Source of the DNA: Sulfurimonas sp.
Lineage (GTDB): Bacteria > Campylobacterota > Campylobacteria > Campylobacterales > Sulfurimonadaceae
Assembly (NCBI RefSeq): GCF_032250635.1
Contig: NZ_JAVVFL010000001.1
Location: 1-37,544, forward strand
Direction: 5' to 3'
Length of the DNA stretch: 37,544 nucleotides
The notes below the pieces were generated by a model. The model was not told the DNA's origin. It did no database searches and worked only from the letters and a program-made list of their open reading frames with translations. Shown here one piece after another: positions 1,427-35,642 of the stretch. Both the position numbers and the translations under genes were made by a program. Position 1 is the first letter of the stretch; the number at the start of each line of letters is the position of its first letter.

Positions 1427-1488
1427 AAAGTGCCTTTATTTTTTTATGGTAGTATAGCATTAACATATAAAATATAAAAGGAGAGATA

Positions 1489-2721: not shown

Positions 2722-2735
2722 ATACGGCTTCATTG

Positions 2736-2749: not shown

Positions 2750-2806
2750 CGCTATAACTTTATATATTAAATATAATTTACCCATATAAATTAATAAGGA
2801 GTTTAA

Positions 2807-3148: not shown

Positions 3149-3155
3149 CAGTTAT

Positions 3156-4391: not shown

Positions 4392-4404
4392 AAGGATAAA
4401 AAAA

Positions 4405-5799: not shown

Positions 5800-5865
5800 A
5801 CTGTAATAAAAATTAAACTTTACAAAGTTAATGTATAATTGTAGTAAAAATTATATAGGTCTTGA

Positions 5866-7070: not shown

Positions 7071-7079
7071 AGAGGTTCG

Positions 7080-10000
7080 ATGATTCGACGTTTTTTAGAG
7101 TTTGCAATAGATAAACCGCTGCTCAACCATATTTTACTCACATTTATTTTTGTTCTCTCCATATTTGCATATGTCAATATCCCAAAAGAGATATTTCCTC
7201 CTATGAACATGGATAAAGTTACCATAGCTGGTGGATACGTCGGGACTTCTGCCGATGTGCTTGACAAGATGGTCGTTAAAACCATAGAGGATGAGCTTCA
7301 AAACATTAGTGAACTTGACATTATAAAAACGACCATTAAAAACGGCTCTTTTTCTATCATAGCGGACATAAAACCGGGTTCTGACAATGCGAATGTTTTA
7401 AATGACGTAAAAGATATAGTAAGCAGTGTAAAAAAAGATCTGCCCTCGGACATGGCAGAGCCGATTGCAAAGATACAGCTGCATAACTTTCCTCTCGCAC
7501 TTGTGGCACTGGCGGGCGATAGACCAAAAGAGGAGCTACTGCAAAGAGCGGAGGAGTTAAAGAGCGAACTGAGCAAACTTAAAGAGCTTAGCGAGATCAC
7601 TATCCGCGGCGATGCCGAAGAAGAGCTTGTCATAAAGATTAACGAGCAAAAAGTTTTGGCGTTTGGTCTGCAGCCTGCTTTGGCGGTAGAAGCGTTAAGA
7701 AACATAAGCTCTATTTTTCCCATAGGAACCATTAAAGACAGAGGTTCTCATCTTTACATCTCAACCTATAACGGAGAGAAAAATAAAGTAGATATTGAGA
7801 GCACAGTCATAAACGTAGGCGGTTCCAGAGTTCTAATAGGCGACATTGCGGATGTCTCTTTTAGACTTAGCGATGAGACGGAGCTTTCACACTACAATGG
7901 TGTGAGAAATATATCCATAAACGTCGCAAAAGCAAAAGAGGGAAATGCGATAGAGCTTGTGAAGAAGGTTAGAGCCCTTTTAAAGGAGAGCCAAAAGCTT
8001 CATCCTGAGCTTCAGTATGAGATATACGCGGATACTTCTGTGTGGATTAAAAATCGTTTAAATACCGTTTTTGCAAATATAACTTTTGGACTTATGCTTG
8101 TCTTTTTGGCGATGCTTATCTTTATAAACCGCGGCATAGCATTTGTTGTTGCCATCGGAATCCCTCTGAGTTTTATGATAGGGCTTATAGCCACCGAGAT
8201 TATGGGAGACAGCTTAAATATGCTCTCACTTTTAGGGGCACTCATAGCTCTTGGGATGCTGGTTGATGAAGCCATAGTCGTTGCCGAGAATATCTACAGG
8301 CACCTAGAGGAGGGGATGGACAGAAGAGAAGCGGCAATAGTCGGAGCGCAGGAGATGTTTCCGGCAGTTTTAACCGCTACTCTTACAACCGTTTTTGCAT
8401 TTTTACCTATGCTTCTGCTTAGCGGCGAGATGGGAATGTTTATAAAAATTATTCCTATCATGATAACCGTGCTGCTCCTCTCATCACTCTTTGAGGCGTT
8501 TTACTTCCTGCCGCTTCACGCGCACGACTTTTTAAAAGTATCGCACAGTGATAGTTCTACGAGAAAAATCTGGAAAAAACTCACCTCTTGGCATAATGCT
8601 GCATTGCATTTTGTTTTTAAAAAGAGATGGATTTCGCTCATAGTTATGGTTGTGACTATCTTATCTTTAACAGCCGTTATGATTAAAAACTCCAAATTTC
8701 AACTCTTCCCTGATTTTGACACCACGCAGGTCTACGTCTATGGAAAGGTAAATGTAAACAACGAGCTTGAAGATACAGAGGCTATTGTAACAGAGCTTGA
8801 GAGAGAGCTTTTGAAAAATATAAAAGGGGATGATATCTCCTCAATCACATCGGTAATCGGTTTTAAACTTGATGCCAAAAATATGGTTGAGACGGGGGAG
8901 CATCTTTTTCATATCTTTATAGATTTGAGTGAACGCGCCGCCGACAATGCTTTTGATGAGTATATTAGCCCATATCTCTCTATTGAGTACGATAAAGATA
9001 TCTTAAAAAGAGAGAGAGACGCAAGAGAGATTGCAAAAGATGTTGAGAGAGTCGTGGAGCCGTTTAGAACTCTTAAAGAGAGAGGAAACATTACCTATGA
9101 AGAGCTTGTCGTAAAGGTTCCGGGAGCCGGTGTTGTTGCCTCAGATGTTGAGATAAGCTTAAGTGCAAACGATGAGCAAAAAACAGTGCAGGGCATAAAA
9201 GAGCTTGAAGACGCACTTAGAGCGATAGAGGGCGTGAGCAATATCTCAAACGATGCAACGCTTGGCGAAAAAGAGCTGAAACTTCGCGTAAACGAGTATG
9301 GACAGCAGCTTGGCTTCAATGAGGAACAGATATCAAAAGAGCTTAGAGCGTACTACCTCAAAGGCGAGTACGGCAAGATGTTTAACGAGAGCGGACTTGT
9401 TCGCATAAAGATAGAGAGCGGCGTAAATGAGCAGATAAACTCCATAGACAGCATAGAGGTCAAGGTTCCCTCCAGCGATACTTTTGTTTTGCTAAAAGAT
9501 GTTTGTGATTTTATAATGACACAAGGATTTGTAGCTCTTCAAAAAGAGAACGGAGCAAGGATAAGAACGGTAGTTGCGTCCATAGATAAGAAGATTATCA
9601 CATCTGCTGAGGTCATGAAAAAACTTGAACCTACATTCTCGAAATTAAATAGTGATGGCTACAAACTTGATATAAAGGGAGAGGAGAAGGAAAACGCAAA
9701 AAACAAAAGAGAGCTGATGCAGTCAGCACTTATAGCAATCTTTTTGATTTTTATAACTCTTGTTTGGCTCTTTGACTCCATTAAAAAATCCCTCATCGTC
9801 ATAAGCACAATACCGCTCGTTCTGCTTGGCGTATTCTTCGGTCACATGGTCATGGGAATAAACCTAACAATGCCCGGAATGATAGGGGTAGTAGGACTCG
9901 CGGGCGTTGTCGTTAATGACGGACTTATTGTAGTGAATTTCATAAAAAATGCAACAAATACAGAAGAGCTTATGAAGCAGGCACAAACAAGATTAAGACC

Positions 10001-10214
10001 GATTTTACTGACATCGCTTACAACGGTTCTTGGACTATCAACACTTATATTTTTTGCTTCAGGGCAAGCCATGATACTCCAACCAATGGCAATATCCCTA
10101 GGTTTTGGAATAGCATGGGCAACTGTTTTAAACCTGATTTATGTACCGCTTCTATATGCAGTAGTTTTTAAAATCAAAGATGCACAGATATCAGAAAAAT
10201 CTAAGGTGGTCTAA
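7080..10214 (+). CDS. RND-family (AcrB/D/F) efflux transporter
   Basis: 1044 aa with two TM clusters; GMLVDEAIVVAENIYR, GVVVNDGL and RLRPILLTSLTT motifs. Confidence 0.95.
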   Translation: MIRRFLEFAIDKPLLNHILLTFIFVLSIFAYVNIPKEIFPPMNMDKVTIAGGYVGTSADVLDKMVVKTIEDELQNISELDIIKTTIKNGSFSIIADIKPGSDNANVLNDVKDIVSSVKKDLPSDMAEPIAKIQLHNFPLALVALAGDRPKEELLQRAEELKSELSKLKELSEITIRGDAEEELVIKINEQKVLAFGLQPALAVEALRNISSIFPIGTIKDRGSHLYISTYNGEKNKVDIESTVINVGGSRVLIGDIADVSFRLSDETELSHYNGVRNISINVAKAKEGNAIELVKKVRALLKESQKLHPELQYEIYADTSVWIKNRLNTVFANITFGLMLVFLAMLIFINRGIAFVVAIGIPLSFMIGLIATEIMGDSLNMLSLLGALIALGMLVDEAIVVAENIYRHLEEGMDRREAAIVGAQEMFPAVLTATLTTVFAFLPMLLLSGEMGMFIKIIPIMITVLLLSSLFEAFYFLPLHAHDFLKVSHSDSSTRKIWKKLTSWHNAALHFVFKKRWISLIVMVVTILSLTAVMIKNSKFQLFPDFDTTQVYVYGKVNVNNELEDTEAIVTELERELLKNIKGDDISSITSVIGFKLDAKNMVETGEHLFHIFIDLSERAADNAFDEYISPYLSIEYDKDILKRERDAREIAKDVERVVEPFRTLKERGNITYEELVVKVPGAGVVASDVEISLSANDEQKTVQGIKELEDALRAIEGVSNISNDATLGEKELKLRVNEYGQQLGFNEEQISKELRAYYLKGEYGKMFNESGLVRIKIESGVNEQINSIDSIEVKVPSSDTFVLLKDVCDFIMTQGFVALQKENGARIRTVVASIDKKIITSAEVMKKLEPTFSKLNSDGYKLDIKGEEKENAKNKRELMQSALIAIFLIFITLVWLFDSIKKSLIVISTIPLVLLGVFFGHMVMGINLTMPGMIGVVGLAGVVVNDGLIVVNFIKNATNTEELMKQAQTRLRPILLTSLTTVLGLSTLIFFASGQAMILQPMAISLGFGIAWATVLNLIYVPLLYAVVFKIKDAQISEKSKVV

Positions 10215-10474: not shown

Positions 10475-11152
10475 TTATGAAACATTTTCCGCAGTTTGCA
10501 TATCAATAGCTTTTTTATGTTCTGCTTTCATCAGCTGCTCTAACTGCTCAACAGTCATAGAGTTCAATTCCTCAGCACTATAATTTCCATTCGCATTAAA
10601 GATAACAGTATCCGGACTTTTTCCAAACCTTGCTTCTTTTGCTAGTTTATGTATCTCACTACTTGCTTTGATGTCCGCTTGCTTAACCCTTGTGATATCT
10701 TTTTTAACTTGGTTAGACAAAACAATGCTGGAGAGCATAGAGTTTTTAAAGAGCTGTGCATCAAAGTAGTCAGCTTGTACACTCGCGAGAAGTGTCATGT
10801 CCGTTTCTATACGCGCTTGAAGTTCTGCATTATCGCTTCCGATATCTAAGATACCATCTACTTCAAGGTCGCCTTTCTTACTCACTCCATAGTATTTATT
10901 GAGTTTGTTTTTCATCTCGTCATACACGGAGGTCGCTTCTAACTCCTCTCGTAGCTTCTTTGCAGTGAGAGCAACTTTGTTAGCTTTTGAGCCTTGTAGC
11001 CAAATTCCACCGTACTCATCTCTATCGTCATTTTTCCAATCGCTCAAAGTAGAGACGCTTACCGCCTCATCTTTGCTTATGTCCGTAAGAGACTTGTCCA
11101 TAACCTCAAACAAAGCCCTACATCTAAAACGAATCTCTAAATCATGTGCCAT
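10475..11152 (-). CDS. HTH protein, probable terminase small subunit
   Basis: N-terminal HTH (SLTDISKDEAVSVSTLSDWK), helical core and a TerS-like tail (ELNSMTVEQLEQL). Confidence 0.55.
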   Translation of the reverse strand: MAHDLEIRFRCRALFEVMDKSLTDISKDEAVSVSTLSDWKNDDRDEYGGIWLQGSKANKVALTAKKLREELEATSVYDEMKNKLNKYYGVSKKGDLEVDGILDIGSDNAELQARIETDMTLLASVQADYFDAQLFKNSMLSSIVLSNQVKKDITRVKQADIKASSEIHKLAKEARFGKSPDTVIFNANGNYSAEELNSMTVEQLEQLMKAEHKKAIDMQTAENVS

Positions 11153-14100
11153 CTATTTCCCCTCAAACTTTTTAAGCTCTTTTTCTAGCGTCTCGCTTAC
11201 GCCTTTAAAAATCTCTGTTCTTTTCTCATAAGCAGCGTTGATGCGCTTCTCTTTCTCTGCCTTGCTAAGTTTCTTATCATAAGTGATATGCTCAACCCTA
11301 TTTTTTATATTAGTAAGCTTGCTTGCATATCTTGCCATCAATCTACTAACTTGAACGTATGCTTTTTTCTCATCAGCACTCATGTACTCAGTAATATTTT
11401 TCCCACCATCTATAAAAGCTTTTTTCTTTTTTGCCTCAAAGCTTGCTTTAACTCCGCCAGCCTTTCGCATAAGTTCATAATATTTCTCGCTGTAAGCTGT
11501 GCGCGTTTCAACCTCCTTGCCTCTAAAGCGGTATGTTAAAAACTCTAAAGCATTTCTTGCAAACGGTCTTGCTCCCCAATCTTTTTCATTCCACAACATA
11601 TTTTCCGTAGTTTCCTCTACCATCTTCGCAGTAAGCCCTAGGTAGCCATCAATATAATGCTGCATCAGAATTGGACTTGCACCAGTAAGCTCGCCTGCCT
11701 TTTTATAAAGAAGCGGCGTGAAGTTCATGTATTGGTCACTCTTGTCATCAATGTTTTCCAAGTAACTTGGAACAATGTCTCCACCTGTCCAGTTCTTGTT
11801 TGTCATATCTTCAAGTATAGGTTGAAATAAACCACTTACGTCTCCTATGCTAAACATAGTCTTTATTCCCCAGACAAAATCCGCTGCTGCCTCTTTGCCA
11901 TGCTTTGTGTAAATTCCATCTGCGACAATCTCTGGCATAGTAGCAAACGCAAAACCAATATCGTAAGGGCGAGGTATCTTGATGTGCTGATCACCTATGA
12001 AGAAATGCCAGTACATAAGCTTACTATCGCGAGTGAGTTTTTTATAGCGCTCATCGTCTCTGTTTGCCGACCATAGTGCAAGAGTTATAACAGAGATAAG
12101 CCCTCCAGCTGCGTAGAGTCTTAGTTTGTGCGCTTGCAGCTCTCCTAGTTGATTTTTAAATTTTACTGCATTGGATAATTTCATTTCTCCATTGAGAGAG
12201 AATATGCGTCTTGCAGTTTTATCCATACCGTTGATACCAGCTTTCATAAACGGAACGGTTGCTAAGAAGCCAGTCCACGTTCTGTTGCTTCCTTTAATAG
12301 TAAAGTCTGTACTGACCTCGTTACCCTCAAATGCTGCCTGCATATTACTCTTGCCAGAGTTTGTAGCAAGTAAAAACTCTCCTATTCTAGTTCCGTACTC
12401 AAATGTATCAGCACCATACGCCATTGCGGATAGAAGCTTGTTTATTACCTCAAACCCTCTATTTACCTCTAGCATACCCATAGCATCCACATCTCCGCCT
12501 AGAGTAGTTCTTCTTGTTCCATAGCCGCCGCCGCTTGCCATAAAGTTTTTATAGACATCTGTTTTCATGACAAAATGGTACATGCCGCGTACAGATGTCA
12601 CAACCGGAATAAACTTGTTCTTAGAGAGAACAGAAGCACTTACTGTGTCTCTTACAAAGTTTGTGCCGTAAAATAGAGGATTGTTTGTAATGTTCCAAGT
12701 CATTACATTTTTAGCACTCATCAAGTATTGAACAAGCTCGTTATAGTTTGCAGATCCAAAAGATGTAAGACTATCTACAAGAGCAGCATCATGAACTTCA
12801 AAGTAAATCTTTTTGCCGTTGATGATTACAGTCTCTATATACCCTGTTTGAGAAGTAGGCTTATGCCCATGCGTCCAAAACTCTAAAGCGGATGGATTGT
12901 CAATCAAGTTCTGCTCTATCTCATTTACATCTATAATGATGTCGGCATTGATATCTCCGCTAAGTATCATTCCGTCTTTTGCAACAGTGATTCCAAGTTG
13001 CGCCATAAGTTGTGCCACTTTTTTCGCTTGCTGCGCTATGTCAGATTTTACAAGTTTATTTTCTGCGCTTACTTTTGTTGCAAACACTCCACCCATATCG
13101 CTATCATCTAGCATTTTGAAAAATACCGATTTCCCACGGGAAATTAAAGCTTGTTTGATGTTGCTCTCGATTCCACCAATGATATTCTCCATGATGTTAC
13201 CTAAAGAGTGTGTGCCTCCGGTAAGTCTTTGACCTATCTTTGCCGGAGGAACTGCTCCGTTTTGCACGCTCTCTGTAACTCTATGAAAAGGTACATAGTT
13301 TTTGTTCATCTCTTGAAAATTCGCTTTTTGCTCAGGAGTGATTAGGTTCATGCCAACATAAAAGTCAAGCATCGCATCGTTAAACTCTTGATACTCATTG
13401 AAGATTGTCTCAAATTCAGGATACTTCTGCGCGAGTAAGAGTCCAGCGTCTATCTCTTGCTCTGTTATGAGGTTCTCTCTTCCTTGCCCTTTAAGCTCCG
13501 AAGCTCTCATCGCGACAAGATAATCAGATAGAAGTCTCACTCGCTCCTCAGATACTTTAGTTGCAGGAGCAAAAATATCGTTAAGAGCTTTGCCACTATA
13601 AGTGATATCTCCGTTAGCTTTAACGCTAGGTACGCCAAAGTGCATAGCTGTGTGCATCAAAGAGCTTGCGTGTTCTGCTAGTTGAAGTATCTTATAAGGA
13701 CTTTCAATCGCATCTGTTGCAACATCGCCACGGATTGCCGCTTCTATGCGCTTAATGCTATGAACTTTATCTATTGCCGCTTGTCTGATGTCCTTACTTA
13801 TCTCCGCTTGACTTCTCTGTATCTTCTTTGCAGTAGAATTAAGCTCTCCTCCTTGCTTGCTTCTTAGTGTTGCAGCGGCTCCTTGATAGTAAAACTGGTG
13901 CATCCCTATTTGTAGCATCTCCATTTTTGCTTGGAGGTTTTTATCTTTTGCTAAACGCGCTTCAAAATCTTTTACCATATTTGGCGCGACTAGAGTAAGT
14001 GTATTGTAGTTTGTAAGCCACAAACGAACGAACTCAGCAAAACCCTCGTTTATGACTTTTTTAGGGTCTGTGGTGTAGCTAAGCGCTTTTACTTCCTCTT

Positions 14101-17100
14101 TATTTTTTAGGATGATACTTCTAAAGAAACTATCTTTTGCATCCTTGCTTTTGTTATTGTGAAAGAAGTCTAAATAGTGAGCCATCTCATGCGCCATTAT
14201 TTCAACATCGCTATAGTTTTTAAGACGAATTGAGCTGTCTTTTCTTTTATATATGCCGAGGGCGCTTTTACCTTTTATCTTACCGTCATAAAGTCTATTG
14301 CCTATTATATCGCTTACATAGATACGTAAACTATCAGCATTGATTGGCTTATCTGCCGCAGGGAGTTTTACTTCTCTTTTGTTAAGCGTGATCGTATCAC
14401 TCAAAGGGCGAGAAGGAATACCGCTCACTGAATAGTTTGGAACATAGTTGATGCCGGCTTCATCATACCCATTCGCACGCGCATAAAAGTTTGTCTCTTC
14501 TATCTGCTTCTGCTCTTTAGGCGTAGGCTTTTTAGAGTAAGAGATAGTCTCCGGCTCTCTGTCTGCCAAGTAACTCTCTATCTCCGCTGCGCTCTTGCCC
14601 TCGCTCTTTAAAATCTGCTCAAGCGTGTAGGCTGTTTTGATTTTATCTATGCTTACATTTTTCCCATCATTCGTAAACTCATCAGTAATAAACTTCGTCT
14701 CTGCCTCGTGTGATGCTTTTTGCTCTTTGCGCTCATTTGCCTTAGCTTCTATCTCGGCAATTTCTACTTCTATACCTTGAATAGTATTTTCATACTTTGC
14801 TTTTCTCTCAACTAAGCCTTGAATATGCTTATCTAACTTCTCTTTTTTCTCTGCTTCATCCTTGATGCCCTCATACTTTGGAAAATTTTGAGGCATAAGG
14901 TTTTCATCTGCCCCTTTTATTGCATCGCTGTAGTTTTTTATTGAGCCTTGTTTTGTTTTTATATCTGCATCAAGCTTAGTGATGATATTTTTGAGATTGT
15001 TCGCGTCTACAACAGCATTTTCTATGACTCTCTGTTTTCTAAGTCTCTCTCTCTCAAATGGGTCACGCTCTAAATCTATAACCGCTTGATACGGGTCGGT
15101 AGTGTTTGAGTTGTCTATTATGGAAACACCATCCACCACAACTAAGTCCTCATTTTCAGAGAACTTATACATATCGTTAAACCCTCTTTTTTTCATAACA
15201 ATGTCATAACTTCTTTTGTCAAAAGTTCCAAGTTGAAAAAATTGGTGTACGCGCACTTCTGTATTTTCATTCCCTTGACGCACGCCACGGTTAGAGCGCT
15301 GCTCTATCTCATCGGGGCGGAAAGGAATATCAAGCTGGTAGATATCAGTTGTTTTTCTGTTTAGGTCAACACCAACACCAAGCTTGCTTGTATTTCCAAT
15401 AATTACTTTTATGTCGCCATTGTTATACATGTCCATAATTTTATTTAGCATATCAGGTTTTATGGAACTCTTTGAGACTTTGCCTGTCGTAGGATTTACA
15501 AAAGCGGCACCATTCACAAAGACAACCTCTTTCTCATCAAACAAGCCAGTTGCTAAGATTTTCTCTCGTGTCTCAGCGTGCGTGGATGTAACACTCCCGT
15601 CGCTGTTTTTTACAGAGAGTCTATCCAAGAAGATGATCTGCCCACTATTGCTATTTTCTTTGTATTGATTTGTAATCAACTCTATCGTTTTCAGTATCTT
15701 ATTATTTTCAGATGTTGCGATATCGTTGTCTATAACATCAAAAAGGTCATCGGGCGTAAATTGAGATTTACCTTTTGTTCCAACATCATAAAGTCTTAAA
15801 TCAATACTAGCACTTCTCCCCGCTCCCATAGCAACAAGAGCTATCTCAACTTCGCTAGAGTCTAGCAACCCGCTTTTTATCTTCTTTGCATCTTCCATCG
15901 CAGCTAAAATTCTATGCTGCACGTCTTGAAAAATCTTCTCTCCGGCACTGGAGAGCTTAAGATAGTGCTGCACATCTACCTGCTTTGGTCGTGGAAGCTC
16001 CGGCATATCTTTAAAGCCTTTGTAATCCACAAATCTATCTAGTATCTTGCCCATCCAATCAAGGTTTTTCATGCTTGCTAAGGCTTCTCTTTTTACTATC
16101 TTGCCTGCTGAGTCTGTAGTTTCAAGCTCCTCTATATCGTAAAAAGTATCAACAAAATCTCTAGAAGAGACAATACCATACTCGTAAAGGATGCTCTCGT
16201 CTAAATGCTGTAAAAGTGTGTAAAGCTCCAGTGGCTTATTTGGCGTTGGCGTACCTGTAAGCAAGATGACATTGTTGCCGTTATTATTTTGAGAAACATA
16301 TTTGCTTTTAAATCTAAAGTCATAGCTTCGCATACTTCCAAGGGTCGCGCTATGAGGTTCAGCGCCCTCGAGGATATCCTTTGCTGTCAGTGCTTTTCCA
16401 TTTTTATCGGAGTAGCTCATCACTACACTTGCCCCAAGTCCACCTTTGATATCTTTACCGCCAAGCCCGATATTTTTATAGTATTGCACTTCATCTGCTA
16501 TCAACCCATCAAAGCCCATCTTTGCAAAATCAAACTCAACATCACTACCGTATGCTTGTTTAAGTCCATTTTTTAAAGCTCTTTTTTTAGCCTCTGCCGA
16601 TACGCCTTTTTTCTTTGATTTTGTATCGCCTGCCTCAACTTCCTCTATGGCTTGTATCTGCTCAACCAAATCATCTACATACTCACTCATTACATCACTA
16701 GGTAGCCCAAACTTTTGGAACATTGTATCGCCAATTATTGTGAAGTCGTAGCGATTGTTTGCAAGATCAAAAGCCATCTGCTCTTTTTCTTCACGGCTTA
16801 GTTGTGTCCACTCTTTTGCATTTCCTTTATTTACACCGCTTTTTACTTTTGGAAATTCAAACACTGCGGCATGTGGATAAAGTTCTTTAACACTGTTTTC
16901 CCACTGAGCAATTGTGTTTACGGGAACAACAAAGAGAGGCTTTTTCATAACGCCTTGACCTATAAGGTTCATAACTGCAACTATTGCCGTGATTGTCTTG
17001 CCTCCTCCGGGTGCAAAAGCTAAAACACCTTTTTTATTAAACACCAATTTTTCAGCGCCCTGTAGTTGATGTGATTGCATAGCGAAGGATTTGTCTCTAA

Positions 17101-20100
17101 ATGTTTTAGGAAGCTCACGAAGTAGTACGCCTGTCATCTCAGGACGGACATAAAAGTTTGAGTATCTGTTGTACTCGTCTGTAAGTATTTCAGCTAAGCC
17201 TTGTTTTTCTATATACTGCATTACTTGTGGAACTAAAACCTCGCTCAAAAGCTTTGTAGCTTCCATGGTCCTTTGGATGTTCTCTTGATCGCTCTCGTCT
17301 TTGCCTTTTGGAGCAAGAGCTTTTTTGTTTAGGTATCTATTGTAAAGCTCTGCTTTCATACCGTCGCCATCAAACACATCGGAGCGAACAAATAGCTCAC
17401 CGCTTTTCTCTGTGCTTATTGCATCGCGAACAGCGTTAGGTAACCAGCTCTCTCCACCCTTAACTGTGATATTTTTAAAAGGTATCTGCTCAGGAACTAT
17501 TGCTTTTAGCTTTATGTACTGCTCGTTGTATTCGTCTATACTAAGTCCATGGTATTTGCGTAGCCCCTCAACAGAATCAAGTTTTGCGTAAACATTGCCG
17601 CTGTAGTACATAAAGTCAAGCTGTATCTCGTTTACTCCGCTGCGAACATAGCTACGATTTTTTACCAACTCTTGCATATCCTCTTTGCTTAAGTAGTCAT
17701 ACTCTTTTGAGGTATCTATGGCTGTGTCGCCAGTGGAATAAAAAAGTGCACGCTCTATTAGTGGAGAGTTTGCATCTACTTCAAGTACGCCACTATCTTT
17801 AAATCTCGTCTGCTCTCCATAGATAGGCGCAGGAGTAAAGTCTTTATCAAAGTAGCTCATAGATTCTTTAAGAGCTATGTCGGAGCGGTGCTCTTTCATA
17901 AACTTTTTAAGTGCTAAGTCGTTATGAGGAGATTTCTCAAACCGTTGCTTGTAGTTTTGTATCTCCGCAAGTGCTGTGTTTATCATTGTTTTGTCTTCAA
18001 GACGAAGACCATCTTCTGTAAGCATTTTTATCTTTTCAAGCAAGAGCGCCTTTTGTGCGTTATCGCCTTTTAGAACTTCTCCAAACATAGCTTTTTTAGA
18101 AGTGTCGCTAAATGAAAGCTCCTGCGCGTAGTAAACCATTTTCCCATCTGCAAACTCGCTGTGAGGTTTAGCTTCGCTTACCAACTTCATCGGGATCTTG
18201 TTTTGTGCTGCATACTCTGTAGCTTCTTCTACGTTTTTAAAACTATGCTGCTCGTCTTGTGTCTTCTTAGCTATTTTATACGGCTCATAACTAATCTTGA
18301 TGTTTTCAAACTTTGGCTCGCCGCGAACTATCCAGCCCTCTTTGCCCATCTTTGTTTTATCGTTTGCTACAACCACTTCATCGCCTAGCAAATTCTCAGG
18401 ATGCTGCAATAGGTATTCGTTCATAGCAAAACCGTCTTTGTTACCAATGTTTACAAACTGATTATTCACATCTTCTTGACGACTCTTTACTCCCTCGGGT
18501 CGTTTTTGGATGAAGATAATATCTATCATGGTATCGGTATGAGCATTTTTAGCTTGTGACTTCTCGGGAAGTCTAAATGCACCTATGATATCGCCTCTGT
18601 CCATTAAATACTTTCTAAGATGTCTCGCTGTAGTTGTTCCATCCATTGTTCCGGTACTTGTCATAAACGCGATAACACCGTTCTCTTTTACTTTATCCAT
18701 AGAGTGAGCAAAGTAAAAGTTATGTATCGCTTTAAACGCAGGTTTGATTGTCATAGCATGCTCACGCATAAGCATCTCTGTACTCGCAAAAGGAACATTA
18801 GAAACTATAAGGTCGTAATTCTTGCCCTCAAAGGTCTCATAAGTGTCTGCAAAGAAGTTTTTGATTTGAGGATAAAGTCTTTTTGTGATTTCAATGTTTG
18901 TCGTATCTATATCCACAACATCCCATGAAGCATTTGGCATAAACCCAACAAAGTTGCCACTGCCAACTGCCGGCTCTAAAATTTTATCCATAGGAACGTC
19001 TGCATCTGCTAAGGCTTTGTAGATTGATTGTACTGTAGCGTAGTTTGTGTAGTGCTGATTTACTGAGTTTTCGTTTGCCTCTCCAAGTCCACCCTCTCCG
19101 GTATAGTGGCGAAGTATCTCTCGGTCTGCTTCTGTAATCTCTTCTAGTGGTTTTTTTATGATTTCGAGCGTAGCGTCATTGAACTTTTTGCGTTGACCTT
19201 TTGTAAGCTCAACTGGAGTTCTCCCCTCTAGTGAATAGCTCTCAGTGCTATTTGGTTCATCAGATCTTGGTAATACTCTGTTTGCATCAGTTGTCTGTTG
19301 CTTAGGTTGTTTATTTCCGCCATCGGTTTTGTATCCGTCCACTCCGCCATATCCATTGGATACTTCATCTTGAGTGCTTCCATTCGTACCAAGTCCGTCA
19401 GGTCGTCTATCGCCCTCTGATACTGACTTGTCACTTCCTTGATTTGTTTTTGTGTCAAGTGTGTTTTGTTTTGAAGTTGGTACTCCAGCTGTATTATTTG
19501 TTCGCTCAACAGTTTGACTGCCTGCGTCATTTCCTCTGTTCTCATTTCCTCTATTCTCCTCTCTCTCAACTATATCCATTATATCACGAACAAACTCAGA
19601 TGAAGTTAGTTTGCTATTTTTTATCCATCTGTTGCTGCCGTCTTTTTTCGTTGCTTTGTTGGTAGTTCTGTAAAGCTGCCCATCAGTAAGGCGCATATCA
19701 TCGCCCATAGTGTACGCATCGTGTATGCCATCTTCTATGAGATCATAACCAAGCGAGACATAAACACCAATATCACTATTTGGCTTATAGAGTTTAAACG
19801 AAACACTGCCACCAGCAGGAGCAAGGTTGTTGCTAACTCCCATATATGAAAGAGGTTTGCCTTTTTTATCTACTGCAACCTCCCATCCACCAAGAGCTTT
19901 TTGCAACTGCTGCACATATTTCGCTACATCTTTTTGAAGCTTCTTTGATACCTCACGACTAGGAATTTCATTCATAATCCCCTTAGTTGTATAAACCTTT
20001 GTCGTGTCAAAGATTATTTTAGCATCGCTGCTTCCGGATACACCTCTATCGTTAGCTCCCTTGCTTTCTCCTGCGTATGTCCCTTTGCTAGTAGGCTCTT

Positions 20101-22918
20101 GTAGAGTGGTATCGCTTTTTGTCTCAGTTGGTAAAGTGCCTGCGTCCGTTTTTGTGTTTGCTGCGGGGTCTCTGTTGTATTTTCCATTTTCCTCTTCCTC
20201 TAAGTATGTGTCTAAAAGTCTTGCAAGAGCTGATGCTTCTTGCTCTTCAAGCTCGTTTAAATTCCAGTTAGCCTGTAGCTCGTTAAATCTTTTGATATCC
20301 TCTGCTAAGTGCGGACTGCCGGCTCTATGCAGCTGCTCCATAACTCTGTCGGAGAGTTCGCTATGCTTGCCATTTTTAGCATTAGTGATAGCGGTAATAA
20401 CATCTTCATATTTTACCACACTATTGACTATACCCTTCGCCCACTCAGGAACGATATACTCTGTGCTTGCAGTTGTATCAAAAAGAGCGTTTCTCGTACC
20501 CTCAAAAGCAAGTGAGTTTTGAGTGCCTTGCTTCGTTTTTGTGGCAGTAGACAAAATGCCGTACGCGCGCGCATACTCATCTTGTACAAAATTGTCATAC
20601 TGTGATGCTGCATATTCAGGAGAATTATCAAGCACTCCCAAGTCTGCTTTGAGTTTAGCAAGCAACTCTGTGTCTATCTCCCCTTTTCCAAGTCTTGTGA
20701 TATCACTCTTGGTAAGTAGAAAATCTGCTCTGTAGTTTCGCTCATACTGCGCCTTGTCATAAGTATTTTTATCAGTACCGCCATGCCCATCAAGTTCTCT
20801 TCCTGCACCAGCCTGTACAAGGTTGTTTACACTTGCCGCATCTTTGGCATAAATATCTTTGCGCATATCAAGAAGCGATTTATAACGAGGGTGATTTTGT
20901 AGCTCTGTAAATTCTGTATCTTGCGCCTCTTTTGTCTCCACGACATTGATGTCGTTAACATCCGCTTTCGCCTCCGGCTCAGGCTCTCCGATAACAGGCT
21001 TTTCGATTACGGGTGCGGGAGTTGATGTTGCTGTTTCATTCACACTTGCACTCAAATCCTCAAGTTCAAACTTCTCATCTTGCGTAAGTTCATCATCCGT
21101 TTTTTCTTGCAACTCTTGAAGTCGTGCCGTATCTACCGTTGGTGCATCCGCAAACCCTTTAGGCTTCAACTCCTCATCCACTTGTAAAGGATTACTTGAC
21201 AACTCGGCTCTAAGCTCATTCCAGCCTGTATCTATTGCGTTGAGTCCGTTATTGTCACTCACGTTTAAGCCATTGGCTTTAGCATCTGCTACTATCTGCT
21301 CTTGCATCTCAACACTATCAACAGCTTCAACAGGCACGACTTGCTCAGGATGATTGATGACTAAATTTTGAAACTCATCTTGAATAGTTTTTACTTTACC
21401 ACGCAGATCGTTTGAAAAGTTTATATACCCTGCATCGTCAACGGTAGTAACTAGCCCACTGCCCAATACCTGCTTATTATAAGCATCTTGCACATACGCC
21501 TCACGCGCTTTTTCTTGCTTCGCCTGCGATAGAGTGTTAAATATTTCTGTTCCTGTAGCGGTTGCGCCACTTATTCCGGCACCGGCACCAGAGCCTGCCA
21601 CAAATCCGGCAAGAGCATCGTCCGCGTACTCTGCTGGACTGCTTAGTCCTTTTTCCGTACCTACCTCTTCGCCAAACTTCTCTATAGGATTTTGTAGAGA
21701 TTCAGTAGTTCCCTCTACTACAAATCCTTTTTGCATTTGTTTACCTACGGTAGTTATTGCGTCTTTGAGCGAACCATCAAGCGCATCTTTTCCTACACTC
21801 TTGACAACATCTTCCGTTGTTGCCTTAAGACCAAGCCTATCAAGGATTATACTTCCCATGGTTGTTGGTGCAGTCATAAGGTAATCGTTTGCCGTTGGCT
21901 CTTTGCGGTTGTTATTTTCTGCTCTGTGCTCTGCACTCTCTTGTTGTCTCGCTGCATAGTAAAGAGGCATTGCCGCTACCATCTCTGCCATATCAGGAGC
22001 GCTTACCACACCCTCGCTTCCAATATAGTTGCCTAGCTCTTGCCAAGCATCTACATCAAACACTCCGCCGCTGCTAAATCCTTTTTTTACCTCTTCCCAG
22101 CTATGTGTAGGCTTTTGAACTATGGATCCATCGTGTAGTTCCATCTTGTTTTTTTCATACACGAAATCATTAAGCTTATCACTTGCATTTTTAAACCAAT
22201 CCGCGCGCTTTTTATTTTGTGCATCCAGCGCCTCAGTGGTTATGCCGAGGTACTCCATGGGTGTCTTTATATTTCCAAGTAGATTGTATGTGCCTTGAAT
22301 CGCATTTGCAGTAAGCTCGTTCACGCGGTTTACGACTCTTTTGCCAAGCTCCCATTCGCTAGCTTCTGGATTGACATAGTCTTGATTTTCGCCCATAGAG
22401 ATAGTTCTTTTGTTTGCCTCTATGGTTTGGGCATCTTGCTCAGCAGGCGAAATCATTCTTGCAGGTGTGTCGTTAAATATTTCAACAGCAGTTCGCATTG
22501 CAGGCTTAAACTCTCTCGTAGCGGTTACATCATCAGTTTGCACGATATCTGATGTGAGAGCATCTATCATAAAAGGCTTTTCAGCAGTAGCGGCTTTTGT
22601 CTGTATCGGGAGAGAACCGTCTCTGTTTGGTGCAACTGCATTATGTAGGGCAGGGTCGGTTACATCAGTATCCTCTTTGTATACAGGAGCAAACGCGCGC
22701 TCTATTGCAGATACTCCTTTGTCAAGGGTGTCGCTAACATCAAAGTCAAGCTGTGCATTTACAAAGTTCTCTTTAATGCGTGTCTGCTCTTGAGCATCAA
22801 GCGCTAAAAACTCAGCATCTGCCATTTCTGTATCGAAGTAGTTTGTAGTAATTGTCTGTTTTTTGGAGAGGTCAAGCGATTGAAAATCTTTATCAGAGAA
22901 GATGTCTATCTGTTTCAA
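11153..22918 (-). CDS. giant polyvalent virion/ejection protein: N6-adenine MTase + SNF2-like helicase (DarB-like) + HExxH zincin-like motif + LPD38-like C-terminus
   Basis: 3921 aa. MTase motifs ILEPAVGSGNF (~18950-18980) and IVSNVPF (~18790); helicase motifs APGGGKT (~17000), DEVQ (~16490), LTGTP and EQRSNRGVRQGN; HEMAH (~14180); KIPRPYDIG and NKNWTGGDIVP near the end; Gly/Ala-rich hydrophobic segment near the N-terminus. Confidence 0.88.
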   Translation of the reverse strand: MKQIDIFSDKDFQSLDLSKKQTITTNYFDTEMADAEFLALDAQEQTRIKENFVNAQLDFDVSDTLDKGVSAIERAFAPVYKEDTDVTDPALHNAVAPNRDGSLPIQTKAATAEKPFMIDALTSDIVQTDDVTATREFKPAMRTAVEIFNDTPARMISPAEQDAQTIEANKRTISMGENQDYVNPEASEWELGKRVVNRVNELTANAIQGTYNLLGNIKTPMEYLGITTEALDAQNKKRADWFKNASDKLNDFVYEKNKMELHDGSIVQKPTHSWEEVKKGFSSGGVFDVDAWQELGNYIGSEGVVSAPDMAEMVAAMPLYYAARQQESAEHRAENNNRKEPTANDYLMTAPTTMGSIILDRLGLKATTEDVVKSVGKDALDGSLKDAITTVGKQMQKGFVVEGTTESLQNPIEKFGEEVGTEKGLSSPAEYADDALAGFVAGSGAGAGISGATATGTEIFNTLSQAKQEKAREAYVQDAYNKQVLGSGLVTTVDDAGYINFSNDLRGKVKTIQDEFQNLVINHPEQVVPVEAVDSVEMQEQIVADAKANGLNVSDNNGLNAIDTGWNELRAELSSNPLQVDEELKPKGFADAPTVDTARLQELQEKTDDELTQDEKFELEDLSASVNETATSTPAPVIEKPVIGEPEPEAKADVNDINVVETKEAQDTEFTELQNHPRYKSLLDMRKDIYAKDAASVNNLVQAGAGRELDGHGGTDKNTYDKAQYERNYRADFLLTKSDITRLGKGEIDTELLAKLKADLGVLDNSPEYAASQYDNFVQDEYARAYGILSTATKTKQGTQNSLAFEGTRNALFDTTASTEYIVPEWAKGIVNSVVKYEDVITAITNAKNGKHSELSDRVMEQLHRAGSPHLAEDIKRFNELQANWNLNELEEQEASALARLLDTYLEEEENGKYNRDPAANTKTDAGTLPTETKSDTTLQEPTSKGTYAGESKGANDRGVSGSSDAKIIFDTTKVYTTKGIMNEIPSREVSKKLQKDVAKYVQQLQKALGGWEVAVDKKGKPLSYMGVSNNLAPAGGSVSFKLYKPNSDIGVYVSLGYDLIEDGIHDAYTMGDDMRLTDGQLYRTTNKATKKDGSNRWIKNSKLTSSEFVRDIMDIVEREENRGNENRGNDAGSQTVERTNNTAGVPTSKQNTLDTKTNQGSDKSVSEGDRRPDGLGTNGSTQDEVSNGYGGVDGYKTDGGNKQPKQQTTDANRVLPRSDEPNSTESYSLEGRTPVELTKGQRKKFNDATLEIIKKPLEEITEADREILRHYTGEGGLGEANENSVNQHYTNYATVQSIYKALADADVPMDKILEPAVGSGNFVGFMPNASWDVVDIDTTNIEITKRLYPQIKNFFADTYETFEGKNYDLIVSNVPFASTEMLMREHAMTIKPAFKAIHNFYFAHSMDKVKENGVIAFMTSTGTMDGTTTARHLRKYLMDRGDIIGAFRLPEKSQAKNAHTDTMIDIIFIQKRPEGVKSRQEDVNNQFVNIGNKDGFAMNEYLLQHPENLLGDEVVVANDKTKMGKEGWIVRGEPKFENIKISYEPYKIAKKTQDEQHSFKNVEEATEYAAQNKIPMKLVSEAKPHSEFADGKMVYYAQELSFSDTSKKAMFGEVLKGDNAQKALLLEKIKMLTEDGLRLEDKTMINTALAEIQNYKQRFEKSPHNDLALKKFMKEHRSDIALKESMSYFDKDFTPAPIYGEQTRFKDSGVLEVDANSPLIERALFYSTGDTAIDTSKEYDYLSKEDMQELVKNRSYVRSGVNEIQLDFMYYSGNVYAKLDSVEGLRKYHGLSIDEYNEQYIKLKAIVPEQIPFKNITVKGGESWLPNAVRDAISTEKSGELFVRSDVFDGDGMKAELYNRYLNKKALAPKGKDESDQENIQRTMEATKLLSEVLVPQVMQYIEKQGLAEILTDEYNRYSNFYVRPEMTGVLLRELPKTFRDKSFAMQSHQLQGAEKLVFNKKGVLAFAPGGGKTITAIVAVMNLIGQGVMKKPLFVVPVNTIAQWENSVKELYPHAAVFEFPKVKSGVNKGNAKEWTQLSREEKEQMAFDLANNRYDFTIIGDTMFQKFGLPSDVMSEYVDDLVEQIQAIEEVEAGDTKSKKKGVSAEAKKRALKNGLKQAYGSDVEFDFAKMGFDGLIADEVQYYKNIGLGGKDIKGGLGASVVMSYSDKNGKALTAKDILEGAEPHSATLGSMRSYDFRFKSKYVSQNNNGNNVILLTGTPTPNKPLELYTLLQHLDESILYEYGIVSSRDFVDTFYDIEELETTDSAGKIVKREALASMKNLDWMGKILDRFVDYKGFKDMPELPRPKQVDVQHYLKLSSAGEKIFQDVQHRILAAMEDAKKIKSGLLDSSEVEIALVAMGAGRSASIDLRLYDVGTKGKSQFTPDDLFDVIDNDIATSENNKILKTIELITNQYKENSNSGQIIFLDRLSVKNSDGSVTSTHAETREKILATGLFDEKEVVFVNGAAFVNPTTGKVSKSSIKPDMLNKIMDMYNNGDIKVIIGNTSKLGVGVDLNRKTTDIYQLDIPFRPDEIEQRSNRGVRQGNENTEVRVHQFFQLGTFDKRSYDIVMKKRGFNDMYKFSENEDLVVVDGVSIIDNSNTTDPYQAVIDLERDPFERERLRKQRVIENAVVDANNLKNIITKLDADIKTKQGSIKNYSDAIKGADENLMPQNFPKYEGIKDEAEKKEKLDKHIQGLVERKAKYENTIQGIEVEIAEIEAKANERKEQKASHEAETKFITDEFTNDGKNVSIDKIKTAYTLEQILKSEGKSAAEIESYLADREPETISYSKKPTPKEQKQIEETNFYARANGYDEAGINYVPNYSVSGIPSRPLSDTITLNKREVKLPAADKPINADSLRIYVSDIIGNRLYDGKIKGKSALGIYKRKDSSIRLKNYSDVEIMAHEMAHYLDFFHNNKSKDAKDSFFRSIILKNKEEVKALSYTTDPKKVINEGFAEFVRLWLTNYNTLTLVAPNMVKDFEARLAKDKNLQAKMEMLQIGMHQFYYQGAAATLRSKQGGELNSTAKKIQRSQAEISKDIRQAAIDKVHSIKRIEAAIRGDVATDAIESPYKILQLAEHASSLMHTAMHFGVPSVKANGDITYSGKALNDIFAPATKVSEERVRLLSDYLVAMRASELKGQGRENLITEQEIDAGLLLAQKYPEFETIFNEYQEFNDAMLDFYVGMNLITPEQKANFQEMNKNYVPFHRVTESVQNGAVPPAKIGQRLTGGTHSLGNIMENIIGGIESNIKQALISRGKSVFFKMLDDSDMGGVFATKVSAENKLVKSDIAQQAKKVAQLMAQLGITVAKDGMILSGDINADIIIDVNEIEQNLIDNPSALEFWTHGHKPTSQTGYIETVIINGKKIYFEVHDAALVDSLTSFGSANYNELVQYLMSAKNVMTWNITNNPLFYGTNFVRDTVSASVLSKNKFIPVVTSVRGMYHFVMKTDVYKNFMASGGGYGTRRTTLGGDVDAMGMLEVNRGFEVINKLLSAMAYGADTFEYGTRIGEFLLATNSGKSNMQAAFEGNEVSTDFTIKGSNRTWTGFLATVPFMKAGINGMDKTARRIFSLNGEMKLSNAVKFKNQLGELQAHKLRLYAAGGLISVITLALWSANRDDERYKKLTRDSKLMYWHFFIGDQHIKIPRPYDIGFAFATMPEIVADGIYTKHGKEAAADFVWGIKTMFSIGDVSGLFQPILEDMTNKNWTGGDIVPSYLENIDDKSDQYMNFTPLLYKKAGELTGASPILMQHYIDGYLGLTAKMVEETTENMLWNEKDWGARPFARNALEFLTYRFRGKEVETRTAYSEKYYELMRKAGGVKASFEAKKKKAFIDGGKNITEYMSADEKKAYVQVSRLMARYASKLTNIKNRVEHITYDKKLSKAEKEKRINAAYEKRTEIFKGVSETLEKELKKFEGK
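19228..19545 (-). CDS. putative nested (+1 frame) 105-aa helical protein inside the giant gene
   Basis: AGGAG 10 nt before ATG 19545; MRTEEMTQAVKLLSEQIIQLEYQLQ...YYQDLMNQIALRAIH; co-extensive with a low-complexity linker of the main frame. Confidence 0.6.
   Translation of the reverse strand: MRTEEMTQAVKLLSEQIIQLEYQLQNKTHLTQKQIKEVTSQYQRAIDDLTDLVRMEALKMKYPMDMAEWTDTKPMAEINNLSNRQLMQTEYYQDLMNQIALRAIH
20014..20187 (-). CDS. putative nested (+1 frame) 57-aa protein inside the giant gene
   Basis: Not in the ORF track. GAGGAAGAGGAAA-ATG start; MENTTETPQQTQKRTQALYQLRQKAIPLYKSLLAKGHTQEKARELTIEVYPEAAMLK*. Confidence 0.55.
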   Translation of the reverse strand: MENTTETPQQTQKRTQALYQLRQKAIPLYKSLLAKGHTQEKARELTIEVYPEAAMLK

Positions 22919-22996: not shown

Positions 22997-23920
22997 TTAT
23001 TTTTCGTAATCTTTCCAACTTTTCGCAGTCTTAGGCGCATCGCTTTCTTTTCTTTTTGCGTAGGCATCTTTAGTCTGTTTTCGTATAGACGCCAAGTCTT
23101 TAACGCCATTGTTTAAAAGGCTTGTTCCGTTCTCCAGAGCAAAGGCTGCTTCCTCTTTGCGCTCTGGGTCGATAGTAAACTGCCCTGTAACTTCATCATA
23201 CTCGCCGTACTCTTTGCCTATTGAGTTTTGCAGATCAAGGAGGTCTTTATTTAGTTTTCCTCCATTTGCACTTTCTGCTTTATAGAGCGCTGTTGCATGT
23301 TTGACATCTTTCTCTTTCGCCGCTAAGCTTGCCGCCGTTGTGTCTTTGTCTGTGAAGTATTTATCAAGCTCCATTATCGTCTTGCCATCTGCCATCTTGA
23401 TAAGCTGCTCGTTCTCTTTTGCAAAAGTATTAAAATCTTTATACTCTTTGCCAACTGCAACATTTTTAGCCTCATCGTTAAACTTACCTTGGAAGTGTGT
23501 ATCTGCGGCTTTAACTGCATCATCAGATATATTGCCATAGCCATTCCCAGTACGGTAGTTGTCTTTAAATAGCTTTAGATTTTCAGCACCGTCTACGCTT
23601 CTGTATGAGTTACTAAACGCATCATCGAGCTTCTTTGTCTCTCTCGTCTGTTTTGTCTCATCTATTGTATCAAGTGCTGCTATATTTTGTGTACCGTAGA
23701 GTTCTGTTTTTGCGGCTTCAGTTTTAAGCCTTGCTTCATCAGCAGCCATCTGTGACTTTTGCGCGTTGATGGTTGCATCTCTCTTCTCTCTATCGTCCAT
23801 GTTTTTGCCAATACTCACAAAGGCATCGCCAAAAGCTTTCGCGCCAAGTCCGGCATCACTTCCGACACCGCTCATATTCACACCCGCTGCATTACCCCGA
23901 AAACTGTCATACCATCCCAT
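22997..23920 (-). CDS. putative internal virion/ejection protein
   Basis: Gly/Ala-rich N-terminus followed by charged helical sequence; lies between the portal and the giant protein. Confidence 0.55.
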   Translation of the reverse strand: MGWYDSFRGNAAGVNMSGVGSDAGLGAKAFGDAFVSIGKNMDDREKRDATINAQKSQMAADEARLKTEAAKTELYGTQNIAALDTIDETKQTRETKKLDDAFSNSYRSVDGAENLKLFKDNYRTGNGYGNISDDAVKAADTHFQGKFNDEAKNVAVGKEYKDFNTFAKENEQLIKMADGKTIMELDKYFTDKDTTAASLAAKEKDVKHATALYKAESANGGKLNKDLLDLQNSIGKEYGEYDEVTGQFTIDPERKEEAAFALENGTSLLNNGVKDLASIRKQTKDAYAKRKESDAPKTAKSWKDYEK

Positions 23921-25791
23921 TATCCTATCCTCCTCATTGCATCAAGCTGGTTTTTGTCATGCTTTGCTTTTACTGTCTCTTTTTGAACGAGAGAATTACT
24001 AAAAGCTTTTTGTAAATCTATCTGGTTTCTGTCAAGCATCGCTTTTGCTTTTGTGTTGTTCAGATTTGCTTGTGACTGTTTTACCATCATATTAAGCTTT
24101 TCATTTTCCGCTTGAAGCTGTGCGTTTTGCTGCGCCTGTGGAGAGTTTTGAGACTGCGTGTCTCTCTGCTCGATTATCTCTCTTATCTTCTTTGCAGATG
24201 GAGAGTCGCTATCTTTTAGTATATCTGGTATGAGATACTTTACAAGCTCAGGGTCGGTACTTTGTAGCACTTTGAGAAGCTCTACATTTTGGCGTAAACG
24301 CTCACTGCTCATAGAGTTTGACTTTGGCTTTGCTGTAAAAATCAAGTCATATTTACCCACGCTAATAGCATTTGAGACTATAGGTTTTACTTTTCCATCC
24401 GCCAACACTTCAAGCTCTACACCGCCGTTGTCGTTTAAAATCGCTTCATTCATTGTGATGTAGTCTTGTATATAATCTTCATCGACTATGCTTACGACTC
24501 TTTGCGTATCATAATACTGCTCTATAAATTTAACGCTCTTTTTAATGATCTTCTTTTGCAGGTTATCACTAGAATTCATAAAGCGGCTAAGCCCGACAAG
24601 CCCTGTTTGGACTCTCTGCTCTTGCCCGACTGCACTCATGCGATTGTTTGCGGTTCCGAGCATCTCTTTGTTTGAGTTGAGAAGTTCGCTTATCTGCTGT
24701 CGTCCATCAATGATGATGCCTAGTATCTGCTGTATCTGTACATTTTGCTTAATATCTTTTACACCATTAATATCTTCAACCATAACTGTAGCATTGTCAA
24801 GACTATACTCAGAGTTAAACGCTTCCATGTCTCCATCTATCAGCGCTCCACGGTTTATGAGCGTCTTGTTGTTTGCCATCATATTTTGCAAGCGTAACTT
24901 TGCATAGTTTATGTGGTCTTGTATAGGCATGATGTCTCTGTACAATCCCCAGTATTTTATTTTGCCTAAGAAATCACGGCTTAAAAACTCCACTTCATAA
25001 GGAAATCCATCAAAATCATAAGGAGACTCTCCTTGTAAAAGTATCGTTACATCGCTCCAAAAACAGTAGTAGAACTTATCTTTTTTTGTAGCCTCGTCAT
25101 ATTTTCTATACCAAGTGTAACTAAGCAGAACTCTTTTGCGTATCGTCTCATCTGCCCACATGTCATCTTCTACTATGTCCGCAACATAGTTTATGTTTGT
25201 GACCTCATTTATCTTCTTCTCATCGAACCCAAGCCCGAGCAAATCCTCTGTATCTATCCAAAAACATCTATGAATATAGCGCGCATCATGATTGTAGTTT
25301 TTCGCGCGGGAAAATGGGTCAAGATAACATTCGTTTGATGGCACTTGCTTTATCTCTATATCTTTATGCTCACGCCCAAACTCATCAAATTCTCCGCTTG
25401 CATTTATGGTAAGCTCTGCAATGGCTACGCCCTCAAGACTTAGCTCATCATCAAGCGCATCTATCTCTACCTCATAGTCGCTCACTTGAGTAATTGCTTT
25501 GAGCAGCGCATTGAGCATCTCTGCCCCGACTCTATCTCTTTGCTGTCGTCCAAAGAGACGAATATCTATTTGCCTCTCTTTTTTAAATCCAAGTATTGCG
25601 TTGTTGTGTTTTGCAATATTATTTTCGTACTGCTCAGGCTGTCCGCGATTTGCGAGTATCTGCTTGATGGTTCTATCAAGTTGATCGCCATTGTAGTACT
25701 CTCTTACTTTTTTACTAAACTCTTTTGTTTTTTTAAAATGGCGCGAGGATTCCTTTAGCCATTCGGTAAGTATAAAAGTATCTTTAAACAT
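23920..25791 (-). CDS. portal protein (P22/N4-like podovirus type)
   Basis: 623 aa; YYNGDQL...RGQP...NNIAKHNNAILG, YLDPFSR, GKYDL and a Gln-rich C-terminal barrel-like coil. Confidence 0.85.
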   Translation of the reverse strand: MFKDTFILTEWLKESSRHFKKTKEFSKKVREYYNGDQLDRTIKQILANRGQPEQYENNIAKHNNAILGFKKERQIDIRLFGRQQRDRVGAEMLNALLKAITQVSDYEVEIDALDDELSLEGVAIAELTINASGEFDEFGREHKDIEIKQVPSNECYLDPFSRAKNYNHDARYIHRCFWIDTEDLLGLGFDEKKINEVTNINYVADIVEDDMWADETIRKRVLLSYTWYRKYDEATKKDKFYYCFWSDVTILLQGESPYDFDGFPYEVEFLSRDFLGKIKYWGLYRDIMPIQDHINYAKLRLQNMMANNKTLINRGALIDGDMEAFNSEYSLDNATVMVEDINGVKDIKQNVQIQQILGIIIDGRQQISELLNSNKEMLGTANNRMSAVGQEQRVQTGLVGLSRFMNSSDNLQKKIIKKSVKFIEQYYDTQRVVSIVDEDYIQDYITMNEAILNDNGGVELEVLADGKVKPIVSNAISVGKYDLIFTAKPKSNSMSSERLRQNVELLKVLQSTDPELVKYLIPDILKDSDSPSAKKIREIIEQRDTQSQNSPQAQQNAQLQAENEKLNMMVKQSQANLNNTKAKAMLDRNQIDLQKAFSNSLVQKETVKAKHDKNQLDAMRRIG

Positions 25792-35638: not shown

Positions 35639-35642
35639 TTTC

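Follow-up and report, generated by a model that had tools for sequence, protein, structure and literature searches.

Genes enclosed in another frame of a larger gene are already known. In Bacillus subtilis, the small out-of-frame regulator comS lies within the giant gene srfAB, which codes for a chromosomal synthetase. The Rz/Rz1 embedded spanins likewise have one gene fully within another in a shifted frame (PMC9144972), and in the ShiLan case a complete out-of-frame gene, coding for an HNH homing endonuclease with selfish spread, sits within a phage methylase gene whose own frame stays open as a loop (PMC11855218). Polyvalent proteins with a methylase-helicase dyad, with P1 DarB as archetype, were described by Iyer et al. 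2017 (PMC5512222); the main text of that work mentions neither TnpV nor DUF1896 and uses 'frame' once, in an unrelated sense, while its supplements could bear on this. Beside its DarB-type gene P1 encodes a small protein, Ulx, described as one that 'aids DarB localization' (PMC9024508), and for TnpV (PF14198) a role in excision was postulated from its likeness to lambda Xis (PMC3158075). In the literature searched, mostly open-access, we found no report of genes nested in those for polyvalent or DarB-like proteins.

Here we describe a nested gene in a DarB-like gene of a Sulfurimonas prophage. What is new is the protein family it encodes (family A), for which selection could be measured in each of the two frames; also new are the candidate promoter inside the giant gene, the independence of the nested gene from the methylase and the stand-alone homologues on chromosomes. 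In Rz/Rz1 both frames encode functional membrane proteins of one complex, whereas the host frame of family A is a drifting linker. Unlike the ShiLan gene, family A has no nuclease or HNH match, is all-helical in its model and has diverged in step with the gene that hosts it. Ulx is the product of a separate downstream gene with no sequence similarity to family A; the preliminary description had offered Ulx as an analogy, and read as homology this fails, hhalign giving a probability of 0.06% against the single Ulx sequence. TnpV shares the nested arrangement but is a different protein, and a search with PF14198 gave no match for the window's nested protein or 6 relatives.

The window, that is, the whole stretch analysed (37,544 nt, Sulfurimonas sp. 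NZ_JAVVFL010000001.1), is one whole contig, with host chromosomal genes at ~1-10,200 and a prophage late region, read on the minus strand, that extends inward from the right end (Table 1). Besides the capsid and portal genes, which lie upstream of the giant gene on the same strand, this late region contains a diversity-generating retroelement and lysis genes. The giant protein fuses an adenine methylase to a SNF2-type helicase and adds polyvalent-protein domains as well as an HExxH motif; its closest named relatives come from Campylobacterales genomes. As it shares the N6-methylase, the SNF2-type helicase and LPD38 with P1 DarB-type proteins, we class it as a DarB-like polyvalent protein in the sense defined in PMC5512222. 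P1 darB differs in having its methylase at the N-terminus and no such nested gene. A relative from JC1 was found in purified virions (PMC9144972), and packaging, injection and protection of the DNA from restriction are shown for relatives; the giant protein is likely packaged in the virion and injected.

Table 1. Coordinates of the features of the giant gene, its nested genes and their surroundings in the window
Feature	Position	Strand	Basis or remark
Capsid gene	27544-28707	minus	upstream of giant gene
P22-like portal gene	23920-25791	minus	upstream of giant gene
Host gene, 3921-aa DarB-like polyvalent protein	11153-22918	minus	ORF and Pfam; relatives annotated DarB-like
Second nested +1 ORF, 57 aa (probably a gene)	20014-20187	minus	purine-rich leader; earlier linker, residues 911-968
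Candidate internal promoter, extended -10 box TGnTATAAT	19578-19586	minus	predicted; ends 32 nt before nested ATG
Shine-Dalgarno-like AGGAG	19556-19560	minus	10 nt before nested ATG
Second ribosome-binding match GAGG	19551-19548	minus	nearer nested ATG
Nested gene, 105 aa, family A	19228-19545	minus	+1 frame of giant gene; ATG, 105 codons and TAG
N6-adenine methyltransferase match, residues 1341-1473	18500-18898	minus	Pfam PF02384, E 4e-6
SNF2-type helicase region, residues 1947-2549	15272-17080	minus	PF04851, PF00176, PF00271
LPD38 domain, residues 3622-3786	11561-12055	minus	PF18857, E 3e-32

Several other parts of the prophage were characterized in passing. The retroelement spans 34345-37544 (-), with the reverse transcriptase at 34345-35358 and bAvd at 35643-35978. 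Its template repeat (35523-35638) and variable repeat (36016-36131) are 116 nt long and 90.5% identical, 10 of their 11 mismatches fall at template adenines, and the variable repeat ends a gene for an Mtd-like tail protein. Directly after the giant gene, at the border between prophage and host, a 225-aa gene (10475-11152 (-)) with a weak DUF1804 match (E 4e-4) is possibly, as a guess, the terminase small subunit. A 263-aa protein (31017-31808 (-)) comprises about three copies of a 35-residue repeat.

The preliminary description had reported a 105-codon stop-free +1 ORF preceded by AGGAG and lying opposite a polar linker in the main frame, without stating the strand. The ORF, the AGGAG and the linker are all present on the minus strand, where alone the coordinates hold, the plus strand of 19228-19545 containing a stop. 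The ORF overlies residues 1125-1230 of the host protein, a polar linker depleted in Phe, Ile, Tyr and Met and enriched in Gly, Ser and Pro; the helices preceding the methylase begin ~10 residues beyond the end of the nested gene, and the N6_Mtase match of Pfam begins further on. The ORF's stop-free run of 113 codons is the longest that the giant gene has in +1. Even so, a +1 run of at least 105 codons arises somewhere in the gene in 24.7% of resamplings among synonymous codons and in 12.9% when codons are shuffled, and in the nested stretch itself in 6.4% of randomizations. Judged from the window sequence alone, the nested ORF is within chance (P 0.13-0.25), and the case for a gene is comparative.

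For this comparison, DNA was collected around methylase relatives and from annotated records, and 65 loci were scored after removal of 25 (the own locus, duplicates or near-duplicates, one chance hit and five TnpV loci). Close relatives were defined as non-redundant loci whose methylase is at least 40% identical and whose host frame stays open over at least 200 codons upstream (n = 29). Among them, 28 have a +1 ORF of 75-160 codons that ends within 330 codons of the methylase. In the 29th (L080) the family profile matches in the +1 frame at E 7e-20, 681 codons upstream of the methylase; L080 is absent from the family alignment, and the match is thus out of sample. The nested gene is therefore kept in all 29, by position in 28 and by profile in one, while a comparable +2 ORF occurs in only 1/29. 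The nested ORF lies wholly inside a gene read in another frame, both frames being open in relatives. The +1 frame, whose conservation in homologous giant genes the preliminary description had proposed to examine, is open in 29/29 close relatives, and the scattered +1 stops that would have spoken against a gene number zero in these loci.

The nested proteins align as one family, with 14-78% identity to the window's protein and invariant Tyr62, Trp69 and Pro74 (three alignment starts were set by hand to a longer ATG), and a profile search for the family yields 103 representatives at 50% clustering. Used as a single query, the nested protein found nothing in the protein database and gave no usable match in the ESM Atlas; L013, the sole hit of a single-protein search, proved to be a chance match in an unrelated viral contig and was dropped. 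The expectation that standard annotation would miss such a gene was correct for the eight GenBank stretches that carry one, none of which has it annotated. Family A is an undescribed protein family, and it predicts unannotated genes in cultured phages.

Divergence across the overlap follows the nested frame, ranking by nested codon position as 3 > 1 > 2 in 7/7 groups. The nested-frame dN/dS is 0.13-0.35 in the unsaturated pairs (14/21), compared with 1.28-4.28 for the host frame across the overlap in 21/21 pairs, and the nested protein is conserved better than the linker, at 60% versus 40% in the closest group. Over the 29 loci no nested-frame stop is seen where 65 are expected with the host protein fixed, and no host-frame stop where 214.5 are expected with the nested protein fixed; because the relatives are not independent, these counts are not p-values. 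The stretch is dual-coding, selected for the small protein and with both frames held open. Purifying selection on the nested protein is also seen in five pairs of carriers that have no methylase. Since substitutions in the overlap track the nested frame, the odd composition of the linker follows from the small gene, as the preliminary description had supposed. Its central claim of a real nested gene is upheld by the conserved open frame, the start signals and the purifying selection on the nested protein, and we are practically certain that the ORF is a protein-coding gene. In prokaryotes and their viruses it is rare for a long natural overlap to survive over deep time; this one is kept across divergent phages with the frame of the larger gene as passenger.

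Start signals recur across the family. A ribosome-binding match of at least 4/6 precedes the first ATG of the run in 22/29 members, compared with 8% of 1281 other +1 ATGs. Promoters of Campylobacterota are typically extended -10 boxes without a -35, and the box upstream of the nested gene is unique within the 11.8-kb giant gene and one of two in the window. (The other, at 27232 (-), lies inside a 128-aa gene following the capsid gene.) Strong -10 boxes at 14-50 nt upstream occur in 12/29 members, compared with 2.6% of background positions and with 4.1/29 members expected when host-frame residues are held fixed, and they stand at differing distances and in differing host-frame contexts. They were also found in 1/5 further family-A members and in 0/9 genes of a second nested family (family B, see below). 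A -35/-10 scan did not have the candidate promoter among its sites and returned 22 sites, against 22.5 in shuffles. From these sequence features, the nested gene is predicted to have its own internal promoter, which, like a second nested gene (see below), had escaped the preliminary description.

When 401 genomes of the phylum were searched in six frames, 17 gave a match, the window's genome included; in the other 16 the match is nested in the +1 frame of a long ORF (10 genomes), stand-alone (5) or a broken remnant (1). We retrieved 11 wider regions around family-A matches and examined ~20 kb per methylase-free carrier. Six giant proteins (1210-1787 aa), several of them close kin, carry the nested gene with no methylase or helicase within ~20 kb; their domains are PBECR, LPD23 or ADP-ribosyltransferase. 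A methylase profile run on 10 wider regions matched in L113 only. The six proteins and the methylase-bearing L113 have ~500 N-terminal residues in common (26-30% identity), and the nested gene starts straight after this block, at residue 504-514 in four of the six and at 510 in L113; in the two with an extra PBECR1 domain before it, the start is at 743 and 783. The window's giant protein matches the methylase-free carriers over a small domain only. In the loci of N-terminal methylases of the same clade (L044-L048, L083) no family-A match was found, nor did one appear in the two genomes and three other records searched. Its persistence without methylase or helicase and the lack of matches beside N-terminal methylases indicate that what the nested gene accompanies is the junction behind the N-terminal block rather than the methylase. 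It stays with the N-terminal scaffold both where the cargo is a methylase-helicase and where it consists of nuclease-like and ADP-ribosyltransferase-like domains, and the tie to the methylase-helicase proposed in the preliminary description is not supported. All mobile-element members that are intact in the inspected DNA (29 in family A's close loci and a further 10) lie inside the giant gene at this same junction.

Five genes on chromosomes, each coding for 101-108 aa, are stand-alone homologues (hhalign 98%, E 2e-13, 57 columns). They are patchy, being present in 9/301 genomes of the order, and their neighbourhoods vary, one lying for example upstream of an aconitase-like gene. They match 574 database proteins, of which the named ones are mostly 'hypothetical' and from Sulfurimonas and Sulfurovum; a search of the window's own genome found no stand-alone copy. 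In an unrooted tree the five form one branch (support 91/84) among more diverse nested copies. An ancestral small gene with the linker overprinted later was considered and is not established by a tree that is unrooted and has the stand-alone copies as one branch. Family-A-like N-terminal domains also head several longer proteins with unrelated C-terminal parts (L126:1495-2169 (-), P0019, P0066, P0078, P0082, P0092), which are either real fusions or chimeric assemblies.

The preliminary description had also anticipated a helical product. AlphaFold2 run on 29 sequences gives a confident all-helical model (pLDDT 93, pTM 0.83), in which two long helices form a predicted hairpin (residues 3-25 and 32-59) accompanied by two short helices. 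The net charge of family A ranges from -8 to +9, and the protein is therefore no acidic DNA mimic. Searches of family libraries with family A gave sub-threshold hits only, the best match by sequence among solved structures had E 0.14, and fold searches of BFVD and PDB returned no match at E 0.001. In a fold comparison with 48,161 chains the best Z was 7.0, to generic hairpins, which does not imply that the fold is new. Tsi2-like immunity proteins reach Z 6.4-6.8 (rmsd 2.4-3.2 over 67-70 residues), tying with many unrelated hairpins, and by sequence score 19.7 bits against a cut-off of 70.

We postulate, tentatively, that the small protein binds and restrains the giant protein or its entry machinery and that, with its own promoter and start, it serves as an off-switch or a superinfection block. 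A host-type promoter and a start of its own would give transcription and translation apart from the giant gene; if the promoter works, the protein would be made outside the late programme, either just after DNA entry or in the lysogen. A soluble, helical protein that conserves motifs and has no catalytic signature probably binds another protein, and, because the gene has a fixed place behind the N-terminal block, the likely target is the giant protein or the apparatus of entry. The small protein would turn the injected protein off after entry or, alternatively, block the same protein of a superinfecting relative, and the stand-alone chromosomal copies would be host-captured versions. If it does restrain injected anti-restriction proteins, it would represent a new control point in phage-host conflict. 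It counts against this mechanism that the strong -10 box is present in only 12 of 29 members, which as relatives lack independence, and that no fold match points to a function. Between subfamilies the N-terminal scaffold changes while the core motif of the small protein is kept, which fits a host target as well. The gene could be real yet act independently of the giant gene, as an effector made early or in the lysogen, directed at a host protein in counter-defence or host control, that has found a home in a tolerant linker, as comS has in srfAB. Stand-alone homologues in ordinary chromosomal settings would suit such an effector, as would the candidate promoter, the varying cargo and neighbouring domains, and the unrelated small genes at the same kind of site elsewhere, including a second one in the window's gene; nevertheless we give it slightly less weight than restraint, since a free passenger should leave such a site more often, and the mobile-element members (29 + 10) all sit at one giant-gene junction and have diverged along with the gene.

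The remaining readings fare worse. A dedicated chaperone or inhibitor of the methylase-helicase, as the preliminary description proposed, would explain why the nested gene ends within ~75 codons of the methylase module in 27/29 close loci and why family-A distances track methylase distances (Mantel rho 0.79), a correlation that linkage alone would also give; Firmicutes-type elements with TnpV inside or right after the methylase-helicase gene, and DUF1896 preceding that gene in L008, point the same way. We nonetheless hold this role to be quite improbable, as selection persists in giant proteins whose examined 20 kb contain no methylase, searches around the N-terminal methylases of this clade did not find the gene, and 681 codons separate it from the methylase in L080. 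It is also improbable that we are dealing with a late-made packaging or folding helper of the kind suggested by Ulx and its part in DarB localization (PMC9024508): co-transcription on the late message is unavoidable and the gene follows a virion-type N-terminal scaffold, but family A has no similarity to Ulx, and neither a separate host-type promoter nor chromosomal stand-alone copies would be expected of such a helper. Ribosomal frameshifting into the +1 frame, giving the N-terminal part an alternative C-terminal tail, is very improbable given the conserved ATG and properly spaced ribosome-binding site, an open lead-in of just 1-16 codons in 27/29 loci, start contexts in which no common slippery sequence is visible, and stand-alone homologues of equal length. 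What speaks for a tail is the N-terminal half of the PBC5 protein, which is in frame with a family-B nested sequence, and three database proteins (P0065, P0067, P0087) that join family A to host-frame sequence; such fusions occur singly, and the match of one of them is to an assembly containing ambiguous bases (L033). Least credible of all is that the ORF is no gene and only a by-product of linker composition, an idea to which the unremarkable single-sequence statistics lend themselves but which conflicts with the conservation, the selection in the nested frame, the avoidance of stops and the stand-alone homologues.

The giant gene of the window probably contains a second nested gene, the 57-aa +1 ORF in an earlier linker (Table 1), which is intact as a +1 homologue in 3/10 close loci: L010 (44%, E 4e-10), L072 (L004/L072) and L011. 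Other alternative-frame ORFs of at least 40 codons were screened by tblastn against relatives. Those at 22355-22233 and 16323-16201 were rejected for stops in relatives; of two in the N-terminal part, the +1 ORF at 20613-20428 (-) has one match in relatives and lacks a ribosome-binding site, and the +1 ORF at 20961-20827 (-) has a 5-of-6 ribosome-binding match and no tblastn match in 10 loci.

Of 20 more distant loci whose host frame is open over a long stretch, 11 have a +1 ORF that lies within 330 codons of the methylase and shows a ribosome-binding match, seven are without such an ORF near the methylase (in one of these, L057, TnpV lies further upstream), one has an ORF lacking the ribosome-binding match, and one is PBC5. 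Ten sequences align as family B (Bcep22, VvAW1, LASTA, Gamede, Pavtok, Atu_ph08, POI1126, USP_18, Itty13 and L006), which shows no similarity to family A. This family of proteobacterial podophages is weakly TnpV-like in 5/10 members (best E 2e-4) and is also conserved in the nested frame in the six tested. Full-score TnpV is found in the +1 frame of conjugative-element methylase-helicase genes in two of five searched records, and after the helicase gene in a third. More broadly, the 'disordered linkers' of giant injected proteins from phages and conjugative elements might form a second genetic layer of complete small +1 genes, some with their own promoter, in which family A would be an off-switch or superinfection block spanning several bacterial phyla and captured by some hosts, in stand-alone form, to disarm incoming phages. 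As a whole we consider this proposal rather unlikely. Deleting or recoding such linkers would also delete the hidden gene.

Further observations concern individual loci. In Sinorhizobium phage PBC5 (L063) the giant gene is split, its N-terminal half continuing in frame into the family-B nested sequence and its methylase stretch carrying no annotated gene; the split is either a sequencing error or a real variant. Three hypothetical genes annotated in Pseudomonas phage Itty13 (L070, NC_070969) run opposite to an open DarB-like frame and are likely misannotations. In L008 a DUF1896 gene (777-1214, E 6e-53) stands directly before an N-terminal methylase-helicase gene. Finally, the giant genes of Dolichospermum phage Dfl-JY45 (L067:1863-2249) and Leptospira phage LE1 (L069) contain +1 ORFs with ribosome-binding sites that match neither family A nor family B.
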